Positions 92 through 7,546 of a DNA stretch of 19,290 nucleotides are shown here, piece by piece (the first letter of the stretch is position 1; each line of letters opens with the position of its first letter). The notes below the pieces were generated by a model. It was not told the DNA's origin. It was given only the letters and a program-made list of their open reading frames with translations, and made no database searches. A program made the translations under genes and the position numbers. The stretch comes from Candidatus Altarchaeum sp. (GTDB lineage: Archaea > Altiarchaeota > Altiarchaeia > Altiarchaeales > Altiarchaeaceae): the NCBI GenBank assembly GCA_018260615.1, contig JAGWDQ010000079.1:1-19290 (forward strand). The letters are read 5' to 3'.

Positions 92-1120
92 TCACAACTT
101 TAAATCATCTAAAGGACTTTTAATTTTCCTCAGATTTTTATTGCTTACATGAGTGTATATTTCAGTTGTCTTTGAACTTGCGTGTCCAAGTAATTCCTGA
201 ATATATCTTAAGTCAACTCCGCTTTCAAGTAAATGAGTTGCAAAACTATGCCTCAGGCAATGAACAGAAACATCTTTTTTAATATCTGCTAAATTTACGG
301 CACTTTCAAAAATTGCCTGAACCGTTCTTGTGGAGATACGCCCTTCTGATTTTGATCCCGAAAATAACCATTTTTGTATTTTGTATCTTTCAAAATATTG
401 ATTGAGAACTGAAAGAGCAACATCAGAAAGTATTGTATATCTGTCTTTTCTCCCTTTCGCGCCTTTAACATGGATTAATTTCCTCTCATCGTCAATATCC
501 CCTTTCTCTAATTTCACAACTTCACTGACTCCCAATCCGGCGGAATAGATAAGCATTAAAATTGCCTTGTGCTTAATGTTGGAAACAGATGAAAGAATCA
601 TCGTAACCTCTTCCTGGCTTAAAACAACCGGTAGTTTTTTATCTTTTCTCGGGCGTTTTATTTCATAAACAAAATCTCTCTTTAGAATTTTCCCATAGTA
701 GAAATTCAGGGCGTTCACTACGATATTGAGGGTGGAAGCAGCAGAATCTTTCTTTTCAACAAGATGAAAAAGATAATCTTTTATGTTGGATTCATTTATC
801 TCCGGCGGACTTTTGCCTGCGAATTTAACGAGTTCCCTGTTGTAGTGAAGGTATGATTTAACCGTTTTTGGACTGTACTTTCTTGAAACAAGCTCTCTTT
901 CAAGAATGTGAAATTCCTGTAACGCAGGATCAATATTTATATCTTCTCTTGAGAATACGGATAAAATTTTATTCACAACGCCGTCGGTATCAGGGAAATA
1001 CCAGTATTTCTCCTGAATGTTCCACCGGTATCCGTCAATAAATTTAATCTTCTCTATGTATTCTTTGTTGTACTGGAATTTAACCGCTATTTTATCACCA
1101 ATTTTTTCAATAGTAATCAT
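92..1120 (-). CDS. Tyrosine recombinase/integrase (XerC/D-like, integron-integrase-related clade lacking the IntI insertion); first catalytic Arg replaced by Gly (G197), probably inactive
   Basis: Motifs KGAKGRKDR (K222), HCLRHSFATHLL (H287, R290), LLGH (H313), TTEIYTH (Y322) and C-terminal KSPLD; N-terminal SAM-like region. Box I reads YSAGLGVSE instead of YSAGLRVSE. Confidence 0.9.
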   Translation of the reverse strand: MITIEKIGDKIAVKFQYNKEYIEKIKFIDGYRWNIQEKYWYFPDTDGVVNKILSVFSREDINIDPALQEFHILERELVSRKYSPKTVKSYLHYNRELVKFAGKSPPEINESNIKDYLFHLVEKKDSAASTLNIVVNALNFYYGKILKRDFVYEIKRPRKDKKLPVVLSQEEVTMILSSVSNIKHKAILMLIYSAGLGVSEVVKLEKGDIDDERKLIHVKGAKGRKDRYTILSDVALSVLNQYFERYKIQKWLFSGSKSEGRISTRTVQAIFESAVNLADIKKDVSVHCLRHSFATHLLESGVDLRYIQELLGHASSKTTEIYTHVSNKNLRKIKSPLDDLKL

Positions 1121-1326: not shown

Positions 1327-2730
1327 TTAATTTTTACTTTCCTTTTCCAACTCCCAAATATGCTTCATCTTTTCAATAAAAAATTTACTTATCTTCGTCA
1401 GTTCGCAAATTTCATCAACGCTCATAAATTCAAAAGCACTATAAATATAAAACATCCTGTCATCTGTCGGCTCAATTAAATTTTTCCGTATTTCCTCAAC
1501 ATTGCTACTTATATTTTCAAGCCCGTATTTCTTTATATCTAAACCTCTTATTGCCTTCTGAAACGCCTCTTCAAAATTTCTTCCGATTGCCATAACCTCT
1601 CCCGTGCTTTTCATCTGCGTTCCGATATGTTTATCTGCAGTCCTAAATTTATCAAACGGCCATCTCGGAATCTTCACAACGACATAATCAAGTGCCGGCT
1701 CAAAGAATGCCATCGTTTTCTTCGTGATTGCGTTCGGAATTTCGTCTAAATTTTTTCCTATTGCAATTTTTGTGGCAACCCTTGCTATCGGATAACCGGT
1801 TGCTTTGGATGCTAATGCGGAAGACCTTGACATTCTCGGATTTACCTCAATAACGATATGTTCCATCGTTTCCGGATGGACTCCGAACTGAACATTACAA
1901 CCGCCCCTGACATCCAATGCCCTTACTATCCGGACAGATGCCTCTTTAAGGACTCTGTTATCATTATCGCTTAATGTCTGTGCAGGTGCTACGACAATAC
2001 TTTCTCCGGTATGAATTCCGACAGGATCTATATTTTCCATGCTGCAAATAATAACGCAATTATCTCTGTTATCCCTGACAACTTCGTATTCATATTCATA
2101 CCAGCCGTAAATACTCTTTTCTATTAAAACCTGATGATTTAAACTGTGATAAAGTCCTCTTTTGGCAATTTCTTCAAGTTCTTCCTCATTATGTGCAATT
2201 CCTCCGCCTGTTCCCCCGAGCGTAAATCCGGGCCGGACAATAACCGGATAGGAAATTTCTTCTGCAAAATTTTTTGCCTCTTCAACAGACAAGACAGCTT
2301 TACTTGCGGGAATCTTTTCACCTATTTTTTTCATTAAATTTGCAAATCTTTCTCTGTCTTCCCCGTTTCTAATCGCTTCAACAGGTGTTCCCAAAACCTT
2401 TACATCATACTTGTCCAAAATTCCTGCATCCTGCAATCCCATAGCTAAATTTAATCCCGTCTGGCCGCCCATTGTAGGTAAAATCCCGTCTATCTTTTCT
2501 CTTTCAATAATCTTCTCTAAAATTTCAACCGTCAGCGGCTCAATATAAACACGGTCGGCAATATCCGTATCAGTCATTATTGTGGCAGGATTCGGATTAA
2601 TAAGTATTACTTTGATGCCTTCTTCTTTTAATGTCAGGCATGCCTGTGTTCCGCTGTAATCAAATTCTGCCGCCTGTCCGATTAGTATTGGTCCCGAACC
2701 AATGATTAATACATTTTTTGGCTTTTCCAT
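1327..2730 (-). CDS. carB: Carbamoyl-phosphate synthase large subunit, N-terminal half (split CarB1)
   Basis: [97 protein letters not shown]. The ORF ends at 467 aa, versus about 1070 aa for full-length CarB. Confidence 0.93.
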
Positions 2731-2769
2731 TTTTCTATAATTTTAAATTTTTTCAATAAATTTCTTTAA

Positions 2770-2863
2770 ATTTTCGTCAGACGCCTATTATTCATCACAA
2801 AATATATATCTTAATTATGTCTGTAAGGCATTTCAGAATAGGTCAATATCATCATCCGAAAAT
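2770..2863 (-). ncRNA. Box C/D sRNA (double kink-turn RNA), copy 1
   Basis: Minus strand reads ATTTTCG-g-ATGATGA (C, 2849-2855), 12 nt, CTGA (D', 2833-2836), 34 nt, GTGATGA (C', 2792-2798), 11 nt, CTGA (D, 2777-2780), CGAAAAT. This gives a perfect 7-bp terminal stem and the canonical 3-nt k-turn bulge. Confidence 0.78.
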
Positions 2864-2864
2864 G

Positions 2865-2896
2865 TAATTAAATTTAGAGATAATTAAATTTAGAGA
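2865..2896. repeat. Exact 16-bp tandem duplication TAATTAAATTTAGAGA x2, just upstream of the C/D RNA (also at 7107-7138)
   Basis: Read directly from the sequence. Confidence 0.9.
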
Positions 2897-3166
2897 ATGA
2901 AATTTTTAGAAGTGTGTTTTAACACTTTGAAATTTTTAAAATTTGTCCGAACATATTTGCGTTGATTTTTAAAGATCATCTAAGAATTGAATATGTTTAT
3001 CTTACATTCCGCACATCCAATAAAATTTTTTAATTTAATCATGGAGAAAATCACCTTACCTTCGTTCAGAGATTTACTCTGTTAGTTCGTAAATAGTATT
3101 AATGAATTTAGTATGCTTAAAAGGGATGATGATATTTTGTAATCAAAAAGTTATTTTATTTATTTT

Positions 3167-3217
3167 TATGCAATTATAATTATTTTATGCAATTATAATT
3201 ATTTTTATAATTGCATA
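3167..3217. promoter_or_regulatory. Operator-like triple site TATGCAATTATAA: direct copies at 3167-3179 and 3186-3198, inverted copy at 3205-3217
   Basis: Three exact 13-mers; the last two form a palindrome with a 6-nt spacer, upstream of the HD operon. The regulatory role is inferred. Confidence 0.45.
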
Positions 3218-3245
3218 CTATCTTTGCTCTCATTTAAAATCTTAC

Positions 3246-3326
3246 AGAGGGCTGTCTAATAATTCAATTTTCACGCATAATTTACTCTCAAAATAGGGGC
3301 AAAAAACTAATTGTTGGGCATCCTCT
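3246..3326. mobile_element. 81-bp MITE-like element with imperfect terminal inverted repeats
   Basis: Left end AGAGGGCTGTCTAATAATT vs reverse complement of right end AGAGG-ATGCCCAACAATT (14/19). No target-site duplication seen. Confidence 0.4.
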
Positions 3327-3459
3327 TCGGATTTTTAAAATGCAAAAATCAAAATATCGGGGAAAAATAAAATTTTTAATTTGAAAGTGCGGAATGTAGA
3401 TCATATTACTAAAAAATTAATTAATCAAAAAAAATAAAAGTGGTTTGATTTAATCTAAG

Positions 3460-4731
3460 ATGTTTAAACCTATTCGTGATCCAATTTGGGGGGATATAAA
3501 TCTTCAAGATGGTGTCAAAAAGATAATTGACACCAGATCCATACAAAGATTAAGACATATTCGGCAGGAAGGATTTACATTTCTATCTGTTCCATCAGCA
3601 AACCACACAAGATTTGAACATATTCTGGGCACTTTTCATTTGCTACATTGTTGGAGGGAGTCAAGAGAAGAAATAACTGATTTAGACCAATTGGCACTTT
3701 TGCATCACATAGATGATACACCTTTTACTTACGCCACTCGTGAAATAATAGAAATGATCCAGAATGAAACTTGGAAGGGAGATGCAGAAAAAAGAAAGCA
3801 ATTTATTAAAGGACTGATCAGTACGGAAATATCCGATAACAATAAACGTAGCGAACTTACCGACAGTATTATCAAGTTTGGAGGAAGAGAACTCGAAGTT
3901 AACATATTATTTGCTGCAAATAATATAGATACGATATGTAGAAATGCATATTATCTTGGATTAGGGCGACCCACAGTAATTGATGCAATAACAAAAATTA
4001 AACCTAAAAAGGAAGATAGGATAACTTTTGATAAAAATATCTTTACGTCTGTCATTTTAGAAGAACTAAAAAATGAGGCATTAACAAATATAGTGGCACA
4101 TATCTCCATGAGTAACAGCAGAATGTTTGCGAGGATAGTTACACGACTTTTATACTTTCTTTACAAGGATGAGATACAATTAGATATGCCATTGAACGCC
4201 CTTTTAAAAGATGTTGTGACCGATACAGAAAAATTTTTAGAGTTTAATGATGATTCTTTGTTATATGTATTAGATAAGTTAAAAGAAAGAGGAGAAGTAA
4301 GTAAAGAAATAAATGAGTACTTAGATATCTATTCCGGAAAGATAAAGTACCCACAACCCCCTCTTGAATATGATATTTCTAATATCCATCTTAACAGCGA
4401 TGATTATACTAATAAAAAATATGATCAGATGATGTTTCAAAATAAAATAGGAAACATGAATATGGAGAAGCAAATTAATCTCGAGAGGGACATACGGGAT
4501 CAATATTCTTTGAAACATCCTGTAATAATTGATATACCTTACAAATCTATAAAATCAAGATTCTTGTCATGTTTGGCTTTGAATTACGGGGAGGGGAGCG
4601 ATATAAAACTCTCCCCATCCGACAGCATTCCTGAAAGTACCAAAAAGATAAGAATTTTTTTACACAAGGACGACTACAACAAAATCAATAAGGACAAACT
4701 TTTTAAATTAATAAAATCAAAAATTGAATGA
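3460..4731 (+). CDS. SAMHD1/YwfO-like HD-domain protein, catalytically degenerate (pseudoenzyme)
   Basis: RDPIWGDI, IDTRSIQRLRHIRQ and HTRFEH are present. The HD motif reads LLHHIDDTPFTY instead of LLHDIGHGPFSH, and AANNIDTICRN replaces DxDxxDYxxRD. Confidence 0.85.
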   Translation: MFKPIRDPIWGDINLQDGVKKIIDTRSIQRLRHIRQEGFTFLSVPSANHTRFEHILGTFHLLHCWRESREEITDLDQLALLHHIDDTPFTYATREIIEMIQNETWKGDAEKRKQFIKGLISTEISDNNKRSELTDSIIKFGGRELEVNILFAANNIDTICRNAYYLGLGRPTVIDAITKIKPKKEDRITFDKNIFTSVILEELKNEALTNIVAHISMSNSRMFARIVTRLLYFLYKDEIQLDMPLNALLKDVVTDTEKFLEFNDDSLLYVLDKLKERGEVSKEINEYLDIYSGKIKYPQPPLEYDISNIHLNSDDYTNKKYDQMMFQNKIGNMNMEKQINLERDIRDQYSLKHPVIIDIPYKSIKSRFLSCLALNYGEGSDIKLSPSDSIPESTKKIRIFLHKDDYNKINKDKLFKLIKSKIE

Positions 4732-4743
4732 AAAATAAATAAA

Positions 4744-5157
4744 ATGGCAGCAAGAGAATTGGCATACATGTTGGGCAAAATGTTTAACGAGGAAAATCAG
4801 AACAAAGGAATTGTACATGACCTTGCAGTAAATTGGTGTGTATTCAAATGTCAAGAGAATGGGGCTATAAAAGATTATAAAAGATCTCTGTTAACTATTA
4901 ATGGACCAATAAATGAAGATGTGTTTTTTGATATTTCGCTTTTGCAAGATACTGGAATTATCGAGGTTAAAGGAAGATATGTGAAAGGAAATGGTATAGA
5001 TTGGCAGATGTTTATCAAAAGGATAGAAAAAGATGGATCGAAAGAGGAATTAGAAAAGATAAAAACTTCTGTAAATGACCTGAAAGCCGAAGTAGAAGAT
5101 TTCAAAGATGGAGAAAAATTGCTAAAAGGATGGATGGGATTAATGAAGAGAAAATAA
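4744..5157 (+). CDS. Small protein, probable divergent YwgA / Panacea (DUF4065, SocA-like) winged-helix family
   Basis: 137 aa, 12 nt after the HD1 stop. NGPINEDVFFDISLLQDTGII resembles the YGPYSxEL...L...G.(I/L) signature, and YwgA is known to sit next to the HD protein YwfO in Bacillus. The ORF itself is solid; the family call is moderate. Confidence 0.6.
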   Translation: MAARELAYMLGKMFNEENQNKGIVHDLAVNWCVFKCQENGAIKDYKRSLLTINGPINEDVFFDISLLQDTGIIEVKGRYVKGNGIDWQMFIKRIEKDGSKEELEKIKTSVNDLKAEVEDFKDGEKLLKGWMGLMKRK

Positions 5158-6746
5158 GACCTAATAGTACAAACATAAAAATTATAGGTATGACAATCTC
5201 TGATATTCTTGGGGACCCTGTATTGGGGGGAATAGAAATTGATAAAGATGAAAAAGGTTTAATTGAGTTGCCTGAAATGTATAGGCTCAGGCACATCAAA
5301 CAGAACAGTTTTTTATATTTAGTTTATCCTGGAGCATTACATACGCGATTTGAACATTCACTTGGTGTTTTTTATATAGCATCAAAGATATTTGATAGAG
5401 TAACAGAAGATGAACATTATAAAGGAATAAAAAATAAAACAGAGTGGAGAAAACGATTAAGAATTGCTGCGTTGTTACACGATATTGGTCATGGTCCATT
5501 AGCACATTTGTATGAAACTATGTTGGAACGCAATGGAATAACTGTAGAAGAGTTATTCAAGAATATTTTAATGGATAAAAAAATCAAACCGCCAAAAAAT
5601 AAAAAAATACATGAGGCCTTAACATATTATAAAATTCTAACATCAAAGTATATACGAGAATATATTGCCGATGTTTTCGACAAAGATCAGGAAAATGAAC
5701 TGAACAAAGAAGTTGAACGAATTGCACATTTATCGATAGGCGATTCTTCTTATGAGACGAAAGATACGGATTTTTGTTTTGCTTACGAAATTATAGCAAG
5801 TGAGTTTGATGCAGATAGAATAGAATATCTTGTAAGGGATTCATATTTTACGGGCGCAAAGTATGGAACATTAGATTATGAAAGATTAGTAAATTCAGGG
5901 TTTGCTATAAGAAAGGTTGGAAAAGACAAAGATTCTATGAGGAAGTTATGTATAGACGAAGAGAAGGGATTGACTCCTGCGGAATCTATAGTGGTGGCAA
6001 GAGCACAAATGTATCCCTATGTGTATCTTCATTCAACTGCAAGAGCAATTACAGCTATGTTTGTTAGAGCGTTTGATAGGATTTACGAAAATTACAAAAA
6101 TGAGGAAGATAAAAAAAATTTTATAAAAAAGACATTGGAAATGAAAGATTATGAATTTATATACGAAATGAAAGATAAAGATGAAACAGGACTCATACAA
6201 AACATTATGGACCGAAAACTTCATAAAAAGATAAAGATTGAGGGATGGAAATATAAATATGTGAAATGGCAAGAATTACATCCCGAGGTTAGAGAAGTTA
6301 TAGAGAACATAGCAAATAGAAAGGATAAATACAATATTTTAAAAAAATGTGAATACAAACTTGAAGAAGAACTTAAAAACAACATAGGCAAAGATATTAA
6401 AAATGAAAAGTATGGGAAGTATCCAGTAATTATAGATATACCTTCATTCCCTCGTTTGGAGGAATTAAAAGCTAAAGTTAAGAGCAATAATGAAACAAGA
6501 TCATTAGAAGATGTGTCAAAGATAGCGTGGATTTCGAAAGATGTGATGAGATCTAACTGGAAAATGTTTTTATTTGTTGATCCGTCTTTAAAAGAGATGA
6601 TAGGAGGAAACTCAGAGGATGCAAAAAAGCTACGGAATAAAATAGAGGAATATGTTAAAAACTTTTTTTCATTTGAAGGATATGGAGAGGCGGCAACTGT
6701 GATGAGGGAGGCAATAAAAGAGGCAGAAAAGAAAATGAAGAACTAA
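5130..6746 (+). CDS. SAMHD1/YwfO-like HD-domain dNTP triphosphohydrolase, catalytic residues intact (start may be ATG 5190)
   Basis: RLRHIKQ, YPGALHTRFEHSLGV (H76), LLHDIGHGPLAH (H117, D118, H121, H126), HE (H161), DADRIEYLVRDSYFTG (D229, Y233, D237). Confidence 0.9.
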   Translation: MDGINEEKIRPNSTNIKIIGMTISDILGDPVLGGIEIDKDEKGLIELPEMYRLRHIKQNSFLYLVYPGALHTRFEHSLGVFYIASKIFDRVTEDEHYKGIKNKTEWRKRLRIAALLHDIGHGPLAHLYETMLERNGITVEELFKNILMDKKIKPPKNKKIHEALTYYKILTSKYIREYIADVFDKDQENELNKEVERIAHLSIGDSSYETKDTDFCFAYEIIASEFDADRIEYLVRDSYFTGAKYGTLDYERLVNSGFAIRKVGKDKDSMRKLCIDEEKGLTPAESIVVARAQMYPYVYLHSTARAITAMFVRAFDRIYENYKNEEDKKNFIKKTLEMKDYEFIYEMKDKDETGLIQNIMDRKLHKKIKIEGWKYKYVKWQELHPEVREVIENIANRKDKYNILKKCEYKLEEELKNNIGKDIKNEKYGKYPVIIDIPSFPRLEELKAKVKSNNETRSLEDVSKIAWISKDVMRSNWKMFLFVDPSLKEMIGGNSEDAKKLRNKIEEYVKNFFSFEGYGEAATVMREAIKEAEKKMKN

Positions 6747-6989
6747 AGAAAATCAGAGAATAAATAATTCTGTATTTAATTAAAAGGCAACCATTAAAGA
6801 CATAAAAAATTTGAGAAATTTACTAAAAAATCAGGTTTTGCGATTTAATTTTTAGAATCATGTTTTTGAATCTGTGATAATAGCAACTTTCAAAATAACC
6901 CCATTGCCGTTTAGAGAGTTTGAAATAGCAATCTCACGACATTAAAAATAAGAGCCATTTGGTTTTTCCTTTTTTGTGCATTTCTTTCT

Positions 6990-7159
6990 TTTTTTCAATA
7001 AATTTCTTTAAATTTTCGTCAGACGCCTATTTTTCATCACAAAATATATATCTTAATTATGTCTGTAAGGCATTTCAGAATAGGTCAATATCATCATCCG
7101 AAAATGTAATTAAATTTAGAGATAATTAAATTTAGAGAATGAAATTTTTAGAAGTGTGT
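6990..7159. repeat. 170-bp direct repeat, copy 2 (right island boundary)
   Basis: 169/170 identical to 2748-2917. Confidence 0.97.
7012..7105 (-). ncRNA. Box C/D sRNA, copy 2
   Basis: C 7091-7097, D' 7075-7078, C' 7034-7040, D 7019-7022, same 7-bp terminal stem. Differs from copy 1 only at position 2 of the D guide. Confidence 0.75.
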
Positions 7160-7162
7160 CTT

Positions 7163-7521
7163 AAAGATTTCTAAATCACCTCGCTGTCACCTCACTTACG
7201 CTCACTTCGTTCGTGTATTTTAAATACTCTTCGTATTTAAAATCGTTCGGAGATTTAAAATTTCTATGAGAAATTTAAAATCGTTCGGAGATTTAAAAAT
7301 TTGTGAAATTTTTAAATAACCTCGCTGTCGCAAAAATCTACAAGATTTTTGGGATATTCAAAAATTACCTCGCTGTCGCTCGGAGATTTTCAAATCTCTA
7401 CGATTTGAAAATGCTTGAAGCATTTTTGATATTGCTCGGATATTTCAAAATCCTTTGAAGATTTCTAAATCACCTCGCTCTTGCTCGGACATTTCAAAAT
7501 CTTTGAGATTTTTAAATAACC
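7163..7521. repeat. Array of short palindromes interleaved with a CCTCGCTGTCGCTCGG-type motif (REP/BIME-like)
   Basis: Perfect stems at 7217-7243, 7258-7276, 7291-7317, 7331-7351, 7386-7412, 7408-7426 and 7496-7512. CCTCGCTGTC occurs at 7179, 7320 and 7368, with a variant at 7473. Exact 26-bp repeat at 7235-7260 and 7273-7298. Confidence 0.85.
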
Positions 7522-7546
7522 CCATAATTCTATCCCATTATTTAAA

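Follow-up and report, generated by a model that had tools for sequence, protein, structure and literature searches.

Archaeal dual-guide box C/D sRNAs, as described in the sR families of Pyrococcus, Sulfolobus, and Pyrobaculum, carry RUGAUGA and CUGA boxes in the order C–D'–C'–D, guides of about 12 nt, and a terminal stem that forms a k-turn; they follow the N+5 rule at conserved rRNA sites, and one of the two guides may be an orphan. The linker between boxes D' and C', which forms the k-loop, is a few nucleotides long. One region addressed by such RNAs is helix 34 of 16S rRNA, the 3' strand of which is targeted by the D guides of Pyrobaculum calidifontis sR23 and sR31 at the equivalents of E. 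coli positions 1195 and 1203 (Dennis et al. 2015, PMC4644070). The eukaryotic snoRNAs U25/SNORD25, snR56, and AtsnoR19 (Rfam RF00054, clan CL00049) guide the formation of 18S Gm1490, Gm1428, and Gm1431 in the homologous helix. The locus described here has the box sequences and order, guide lengths, terminal stem, N+5 relationship to a conserved rRNA site, and single orphan guide of the archaeal dual-guide sRNAs, but it differs from them in its D'–C' linker of 34 nt and in its host, a mesophilic Altiarchaeum that seems to possess only about 4–6 C/D sRNA genes.

The locus occupies 94 nt of the minus strand (2770–2863) of the window, the whole 19,290-nt stretch of DNA that was analysed, and adjoins the gene for the N-terminal part of CarB (carB). 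It is best explained as a genuine and previously unannotated archaeal box C/D sRNA gene of Candidatus Altiarchaeum, present in two copies, with a D' guide that would direct the formation of a 2'-O-methylguanosine in 16S rRNA helix 34; we assign this reading a probability of about 0.8. The anatomy, the pattern of conservation, the target complementarity, and the presence of the required protein genes were observed directly, and from these we infer transcription, RNP assembly, and methylation.

Read from 2863 to 2770, the RNA runs ATTTTCG-G-ATGATGA-TATTGACCTATT-CTGA-(34 nt)-GTGATGA-ATAATAGGCGT-CTGA-CGAAAAT. The 5' strand of the terminal stem (ATTTTCG, 2857–2863) forms seven base pairs with the invariant 3' strand (CGAAAAT, 2770–2776), and is followed by a single G (2856), the first nucleotide of the k-turn bulge, and by box C (ATGATGA, 2849–2855), which is invariant in eight homologues. 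The 12-nt D' guide TATTGACCTATT (2837–2848) precedes box D' (CTGA, 2833–2836), which matches the consensus and is invariant in the homologues, and the 34-nt linker (2799–2832), an enlarged k-loop, separates it from box C' (GTGATGA, 2792–2798), also of consensus sequence and invariant in the genus. The 11-nt D guide ATAATAGGCGT (2781–2791), the orphan of the pair, leads into box D (CTGA, 2777–2780), which is identified both in the sequence and in the homologue alignment. The first nucleotide 3' of box D pairs with the second nucleotide 5' of box C, leaving a 3-nt bulge (G-A-U) in the register of a k-turn. The four consensus boxes, the guide lengths, the 7-bp closing stem with its k-turn geometry, and the 34-nt linker, all of which had been described in an earlier note on this DNA, were thus confirmed on the minus strand. 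C and D boxes, D' and C' boxes, a k-turn terminal stem, and guides of about 10–12 nt are the features by which archaeal box C/D sRNAs are recognized, and all are present, the k-turn having its 3-nt bulge and tandem G·A pairs; among the structural features, the one departure is in the k-loop, for which a short length is typical rather than strictly defining. Strong folding is not expected of C/D RNAs, and the 94-mer folds no better than shuffled sequences (z = −0.26).

A second copy of the sRNA gene lies on the same strand at 7012–7105, and is identical to the first except for one base of the D guide, which reads AAAATAGGCGT in the second copy. The difference (2790 versus 7032) falls on the second base of the D guide, ten positions upstream of box D; the earlier statement that the copies differ only outside the guide core holds in that this is the distal and least important end of the guide, but the base nevertheless lies inside it. 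The two copies are contained in 175-bp direct repeats (2748–2922 and 6990–7164), each comprising the sRNA flanked by about 59 nt of upstream and 22 nt of downstream sequence. The duplication is regarded as real because, in a run of source-like DNA, the repeat has a depth of 6146 compared with 3310 and 3144 in its flanks, with contigs breaking at the repeat edges, and because both copies, again distinguished by that one base, recur in a JGI contig of 95 kb and in a MAG contig from NCBI. In the NCBI MAG contig of a near-identical strain (PHDY01000021.1), the part corresponding to window positions 1331–2948 shows small rearrangements on the carB side, with a jump from 1438 to 1550 and 58 bp missing between 2889 and 2948, which may be assembly differences at the repeat.

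Between the repeats lies an island of 4067 bp (2923–6989) that encodes two HD-domain proteins and a 137-aa protein, and is absent from three congeneric genomes, the corresponding site in relatives being empty. No integrase was found inside the island, and a search of viral contigs with an island HD protein returned nothing; the second HD protein has a weak match to a PADLOC dGTPase model (E = 7.5e-7). In archaea, tRNA genes serve integrative elements as integration sites. Since the 175-bp repeats hold exactly the promoter region and the sRNA, it is conceivable, although doubtful, that the C/D sRNA gene served as a homology or attachment site for the island, through Campbell-style integration of a circular element carrying the sRNA locus. 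If this were true, C/D sRNA genes would constitute a second class of small-RNA integration targets.

The D' guide matches its own 16S rRNA over its full length. All 12 of its nucleotides pair with 16S positions 1130–1141 (GAUAGGUCAGUA; G000:C136:7055-7066 in the same genome), through 10 Watson–Crick pairs and two G:U pairs, so that the guide–target relationship suggested in the earlier note stands for the D' guide as a full-length match but not as a perfect complement. When the guide was shuffled 3000 times, a 12/12 match arose in 5.3% of cases, and one that included 10 or more Watson–Crick pairs in 1.3%; the chance probability of 1–5% is a modest one for a guide taken singly. Counted upstream from box D', the fifth nucleotide of the guide forms a C–G pair with 16S G1134, which by the N+5 rule is the predicted site of modification. 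Counted in the alignment of Dennis et al. (2015), G1134 is equivalent to E. coli A1197, in the 3' strand of helix 34; our own alignment to a 1544-nt E. coli rrs copy places G1134 in the same column, but its numbering is offset by two, and the E. coli numbering was therefore taken from the published alignment. Two relatives have exactly this target sequence in their 16S genes. Most archaea have GGCAGG in this otherwise conserved stretch, and the guide matches AUAGG, the variant specific to the lineage. The D' guide would most likely direct a methyl mark onto the small-subunit rRNA, at a site in helix 34 near the A-site decoding region. A perfect 12-nt complement of the D' guide was also noticed at C31:255; it is antisense to an open reading frame, about one such match is expected by chance, and it was set aside.

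The predicted target lies on the same helix 34 3' strand, in the GGCAGGUCAGUAUGCC region, as those of P. calidifontis sR23 and sR31; however, the methylation sites predicted for these two RNAs lie 2 nt to the 5' side and 6 nt to the 3' side of the Altiarchaeum site, and no sequence homology extends beyond the guide. With U25, snR56, and AtsnoR19, the Altiarchaeum sRNA shares the methylation, here predicted, of a G within the homologous helix 34 stretch ACAGGUC, beside the A site, although the eukaryotic Gm is probably the neighbouring G (the E. coli 1198 equivalent) rather than the 1197 equivalent. The Rfam comparison gave no hit of the Altiarchaeum sRNA to RF00054, and the resemblance to the eukaryotic snoRNAs is therefore functional at most.

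No convincing partner for the D guide turned up in 16S rRNA, 23S rRNA, or the 39 predicted tRNAs, which were the RNAs searched; the best match there pairs only 9–10 of the 11 guide nucleotides, with gaps, and complements of the guide occur genome-wide at or below chance expectation. The search for guide complements in rRNA and tRNA that had been proposed as a check thus yielded a target for one guide only. Orphan guides are common, accounting for 28% in Pyrobaculum (PMC6009581). In a more distant homologue (QGLW01000906.1, hereafter L053), the D guide, AAAGAGCGGGGT, forms eight contiguous Watson–Crick pairs and two more with Altiarchaeum 16S 1317–1328 (CCCCGCUCC), shortly before the 1400 region. 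This stretch may be the ancestral D target, although the match alone is not significant. The two guides of the Altiarchaeum sRNA are complementary to each other over 6 bp, as had been pointed out, and 2.2% of shuffled guide pairs are likewise. The complementarity is real but not conserved, shrinking to 4 bp in the Crystal-Geyser-type relative and to 3 bp in the distant homologue, and it is therefore best read as a coincidence.

Single-copy homologues are found in three congeneric genomes, and further ones occur in SM1-MSI contigs, Crystal-Geyser-type metagenome contigs, and L053. Every homologue found is flanked by speB (agmatinase) and the 467-aa N-terminal carB gene, and shares its strand with carB. 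Within the genus alignment, variable columns are absent from the boxes (0/22) and the 3' stem strand (0/7), and are limited to one of eight in the 5' stem strand with the bulge G and to one of 12 in the D' guide, at its distal base only; at least 6 of the 7 bp of the terminal stem are retained in all homologues. The D guide varies in 3 of 11 columns, the linker in 9 of 34 with additional indels, the upstream 60 nt in 24 of 60, and the downstream 60-nt flank in 65 of 76. Constant boxes and a constant D' guide, combined with a drifting D guide and linker, form the pattern expected of a C/D guide RNA with a working D' guide. The L053 homologue (1912–1975) is a 64-nt RNA in the same place, next to a carB that is only 80% identical at the DNA level; its stem and boxes match those of the genus, as does its D' guide except at the distal base, but it has a different D guide and a linker of only 3 nt (TTT). 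A pattern search for the D' guide core across 57 genomes of the class that belong to other genera gave no match, and these genomes are incomplete, so that absence is not implied.

[quoted passage not shown] The pair of motifs is retained in all genus homologues despite the 24 variable columns of the upstream region. Judged by its position, the motif probably acts as a TATA box, giving the sRNA gene its own promoter, and the transcript may also read through into carB; co-transcription is usual for archaeal C/D genes (PMC7994747). Assembled contigs of three metatranscriptome runs (Logan) cover the carB of related strains and not the sRNA, and one relative's RNA-library contig ends inside the sRNA, although contigs of this kind cannot show expression.

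The proximity of carB raises the possibility, voiced in the earlier note, that the locus is a cis-acting, L7Ae-binding leader, in which the k-turn would recruit L7Ae to regulate the translation of carB or the processing of its mRNA, and the guides would play no part. Archaeal mRNA leaders with k-turns bound by L7Ae are known, and the locus lies on the same strand as carB, 39 nt upstream of its start, in a position that is kept upstream of carB in every homologue, including the distant L053; moreover, no strong T-run terminator follows the sRNA. However, the distance between the sRNA and carB reaches 300–450 nt in G001 and in SM1-MSI strains, with MITE-like elements among the inserts, and the second copy of the sRNA remains intact although it has been cut off by the island and lies 4.2 kb from carB. 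A TATA-like stretch between the sRNA and the carB ATG suggests that carB may have its own promoter. In addition, a regulatory k-turn requires neither a second pair of boxes, nor a 12-nt spacing, nor a conserved guide complementary to 16S rRNA. The inserts and the remote second copy in particular leave the leader function unsupported, and it is considered unlikely.

The speB–sRNA–carB intergenic region is a hot spot for short repeats: between its sRNA and carB, about 110–570 nt downstream of the C box, an SM1-MSI contig (CCXY01000145.1) carries two tandem, MITE-like elements, each about 265 bp long, with the terminal inverted repeats GTAACTATTCAG and CTGAATAGTTAC; G001 and a second MSI contig have other inserts of 300–400 bp at the same place, and a hairpin array beside the second sRNA copy (7163–7546) has about 290 BLAST matches across the genome. 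The carB gene (1327–2730, minus strand) ends after 467 aa, inside the oligomerisation domain, both here and in G002, and in G003 it extends about 476 aa from the shared MEKPKN start (the listed open reading frame being 500 aa). A tyrosine recombinase gene (92–1120, minus strand) follows carB both in this genome and in G002, the two being about 75% identical in DNA sequence, and carB looks like a split gene.

The D'–C' linker is the most unusual feature of the sRNA. At 34 nt, and 32–34 nt within the genus, it is far beyond the usual length of an archaeal k-loop; because of this length, and because a search of the linker for a canonical stem that would turn C'/D' into a true k-turn found only 2 bp in register, the function of the internal C'/D' motif is assumed. 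The linker has no significant fold and no other occurrence in the genome, and its duplexes with rRNA (−14.7 kcal/mol where shuffles average −15.3, and −18.1 where they average −16.3) give no sign of accessory pairing. As L053 combines the same stem and D' guide with a 3-nt linker, the 34-nt linker is read as an ancestral k-loop of 3 nt into which about 31 nt were inserted. The same genome holds another C/D sRNA family (G000:C98:124-189), which is kept in G001 and G003. With the sRNA described here it shares the genus, the consensus boxes, one rRNA-matching guide, one orphan guide, and a long linker, in its case of 20–21 nt, so that long k-loops are characteristic of the genus and not peculiar to one gene. 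The C98 linker differs almost wholly between strains while the boxes and guides are kept, whereas the linker described here is fairly conserved within the genus. Given the 3-nt linker of the distant homologue and the variable linker of the C98 family, the long linker looks like a harmless expansion that has been tolerated in this lineage, and not like a new functional module. Less probably, the conserved 5' half of the enlarged k-loop could serve as a functional module peculiar to the lineage. C/D RNPs have been found to assemble on two-piece RNAs without a loop (reviewed in PMC7994747), which fits a loop that is dispensable for assembly, although the loop may influence whether mono- or di-RNPs form.

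Linker expansion also bears on a reading in which the locus is a decaying C/D-like relic, with boxes kept through recent descent, a disrupted k-loop, and no methylation activity. The enlarged linker, the orphan and drifting D guide, and the very small number of C/D sRNAs in the organism agree with such a decay. However, boxes, stem, and D' guide stay constant while flanks, linker, and D guide change, even in the comparison with L053, and the D' guide retains its full-length rRNA match, which makes a relic very unlikely.

The strict four-box pattern occurs five times in the 2.2-Mb genome and not once in five block-shuffled genomes, and the sRNA is conserved and syntenic in at least six independent assemblies, so that a chance assembly of motifs in AT-rich intergenic DNA, which short boxes and a G+C content of 33% might favour, is effectively refuted. 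A comparison with Rfam models returned generic C/D matches spanning exactly 2770–2863, but none reached its gathering score: at gathering thresholds no family was matched, and in E-value mode the hits were below threshold, with 26.3 bits for snoR38 (RF00213; gathering score 45) and 20.4 bits for sR11 (RF01150; gathering score 39). The sRNA does not belong to the snoPyro_CD (RF00095) or sR11 families, for which scores of 14–20 bits compare with gathering scores of 39–45. The protein components of the C/D RNP are encoded in the genome, according to NCBIfam matches to fibrillarin (270 bits), aNOP56/Nop5 (242 bits, a partial piece), and L7Ae (134 bits, a partial piece). The presence of these genes, the conserved boxes and D' guide, and the 12/12 match to 16S rRNA together support the methylation-guide reading advanced in the earlier note.

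Other C/D sRNAs of the genome (on contigs C53, C98, and C125) show rRNA matches of 10–11 bp, which indicates that matching guides to targets works in this organism. Two canonical examples are located at G000:C53:6459-6507 and on the minus strand of G000:C125 (15917–15967, counted on the reverse complement), with linkers of 3 and 5 nt, and C88 holds a weaker candidate; the guides of these three match 23S rRNA at about 2240 and 2543, as well as 16S 1335–1344 (the decoding-centre stretch CCGCCCGUCA). The D' guide of the C98 sRNA forms 11 Watson–Crick pairs with 23S rRNA at about 824–835.

In the proposed working of the guide RNA, boxes C and D would form a k-turn closed by the 7-bp stem, and boxes C' and D' a k-loop with an enlarged 34-nt loop. 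L7Ae would bind both motifs, followed by the assembly of Nop5 and fibrillarin, and the D' guide would pair with 16S 1130–1141, placing G1134 for 2'-O-methylation by fibrillarin. The D guide may have lost, or may never have had, an rRNA or tRNA target, and is drifting. The insertion of about 31 nt into the ancestral k-loop is proposed to have been tolerated because the loop would point away from the RNP core.

The sRNA is a fairly ordinary guide RNA, and the known working of C/D RNPs is unchanged by these results. No description of C/D guide RNAs in Altiarchaeum was found in the literature searched, and this locus, with three or four others, provides a first small C/D inventory for a mesophilic, uncultivated lineage. 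The linkers of 3 and 34 nt in sister lineages amount to a natural experiment, in which the k-loop accepts a 31-nt insertion with the conservation of boxes and guide unharmed. The methylation predicted for this sRNA would fall in helix 34 of the decoding centre, a region in which hyperthermophilic archaea and eukaryotes carry modifications as well.
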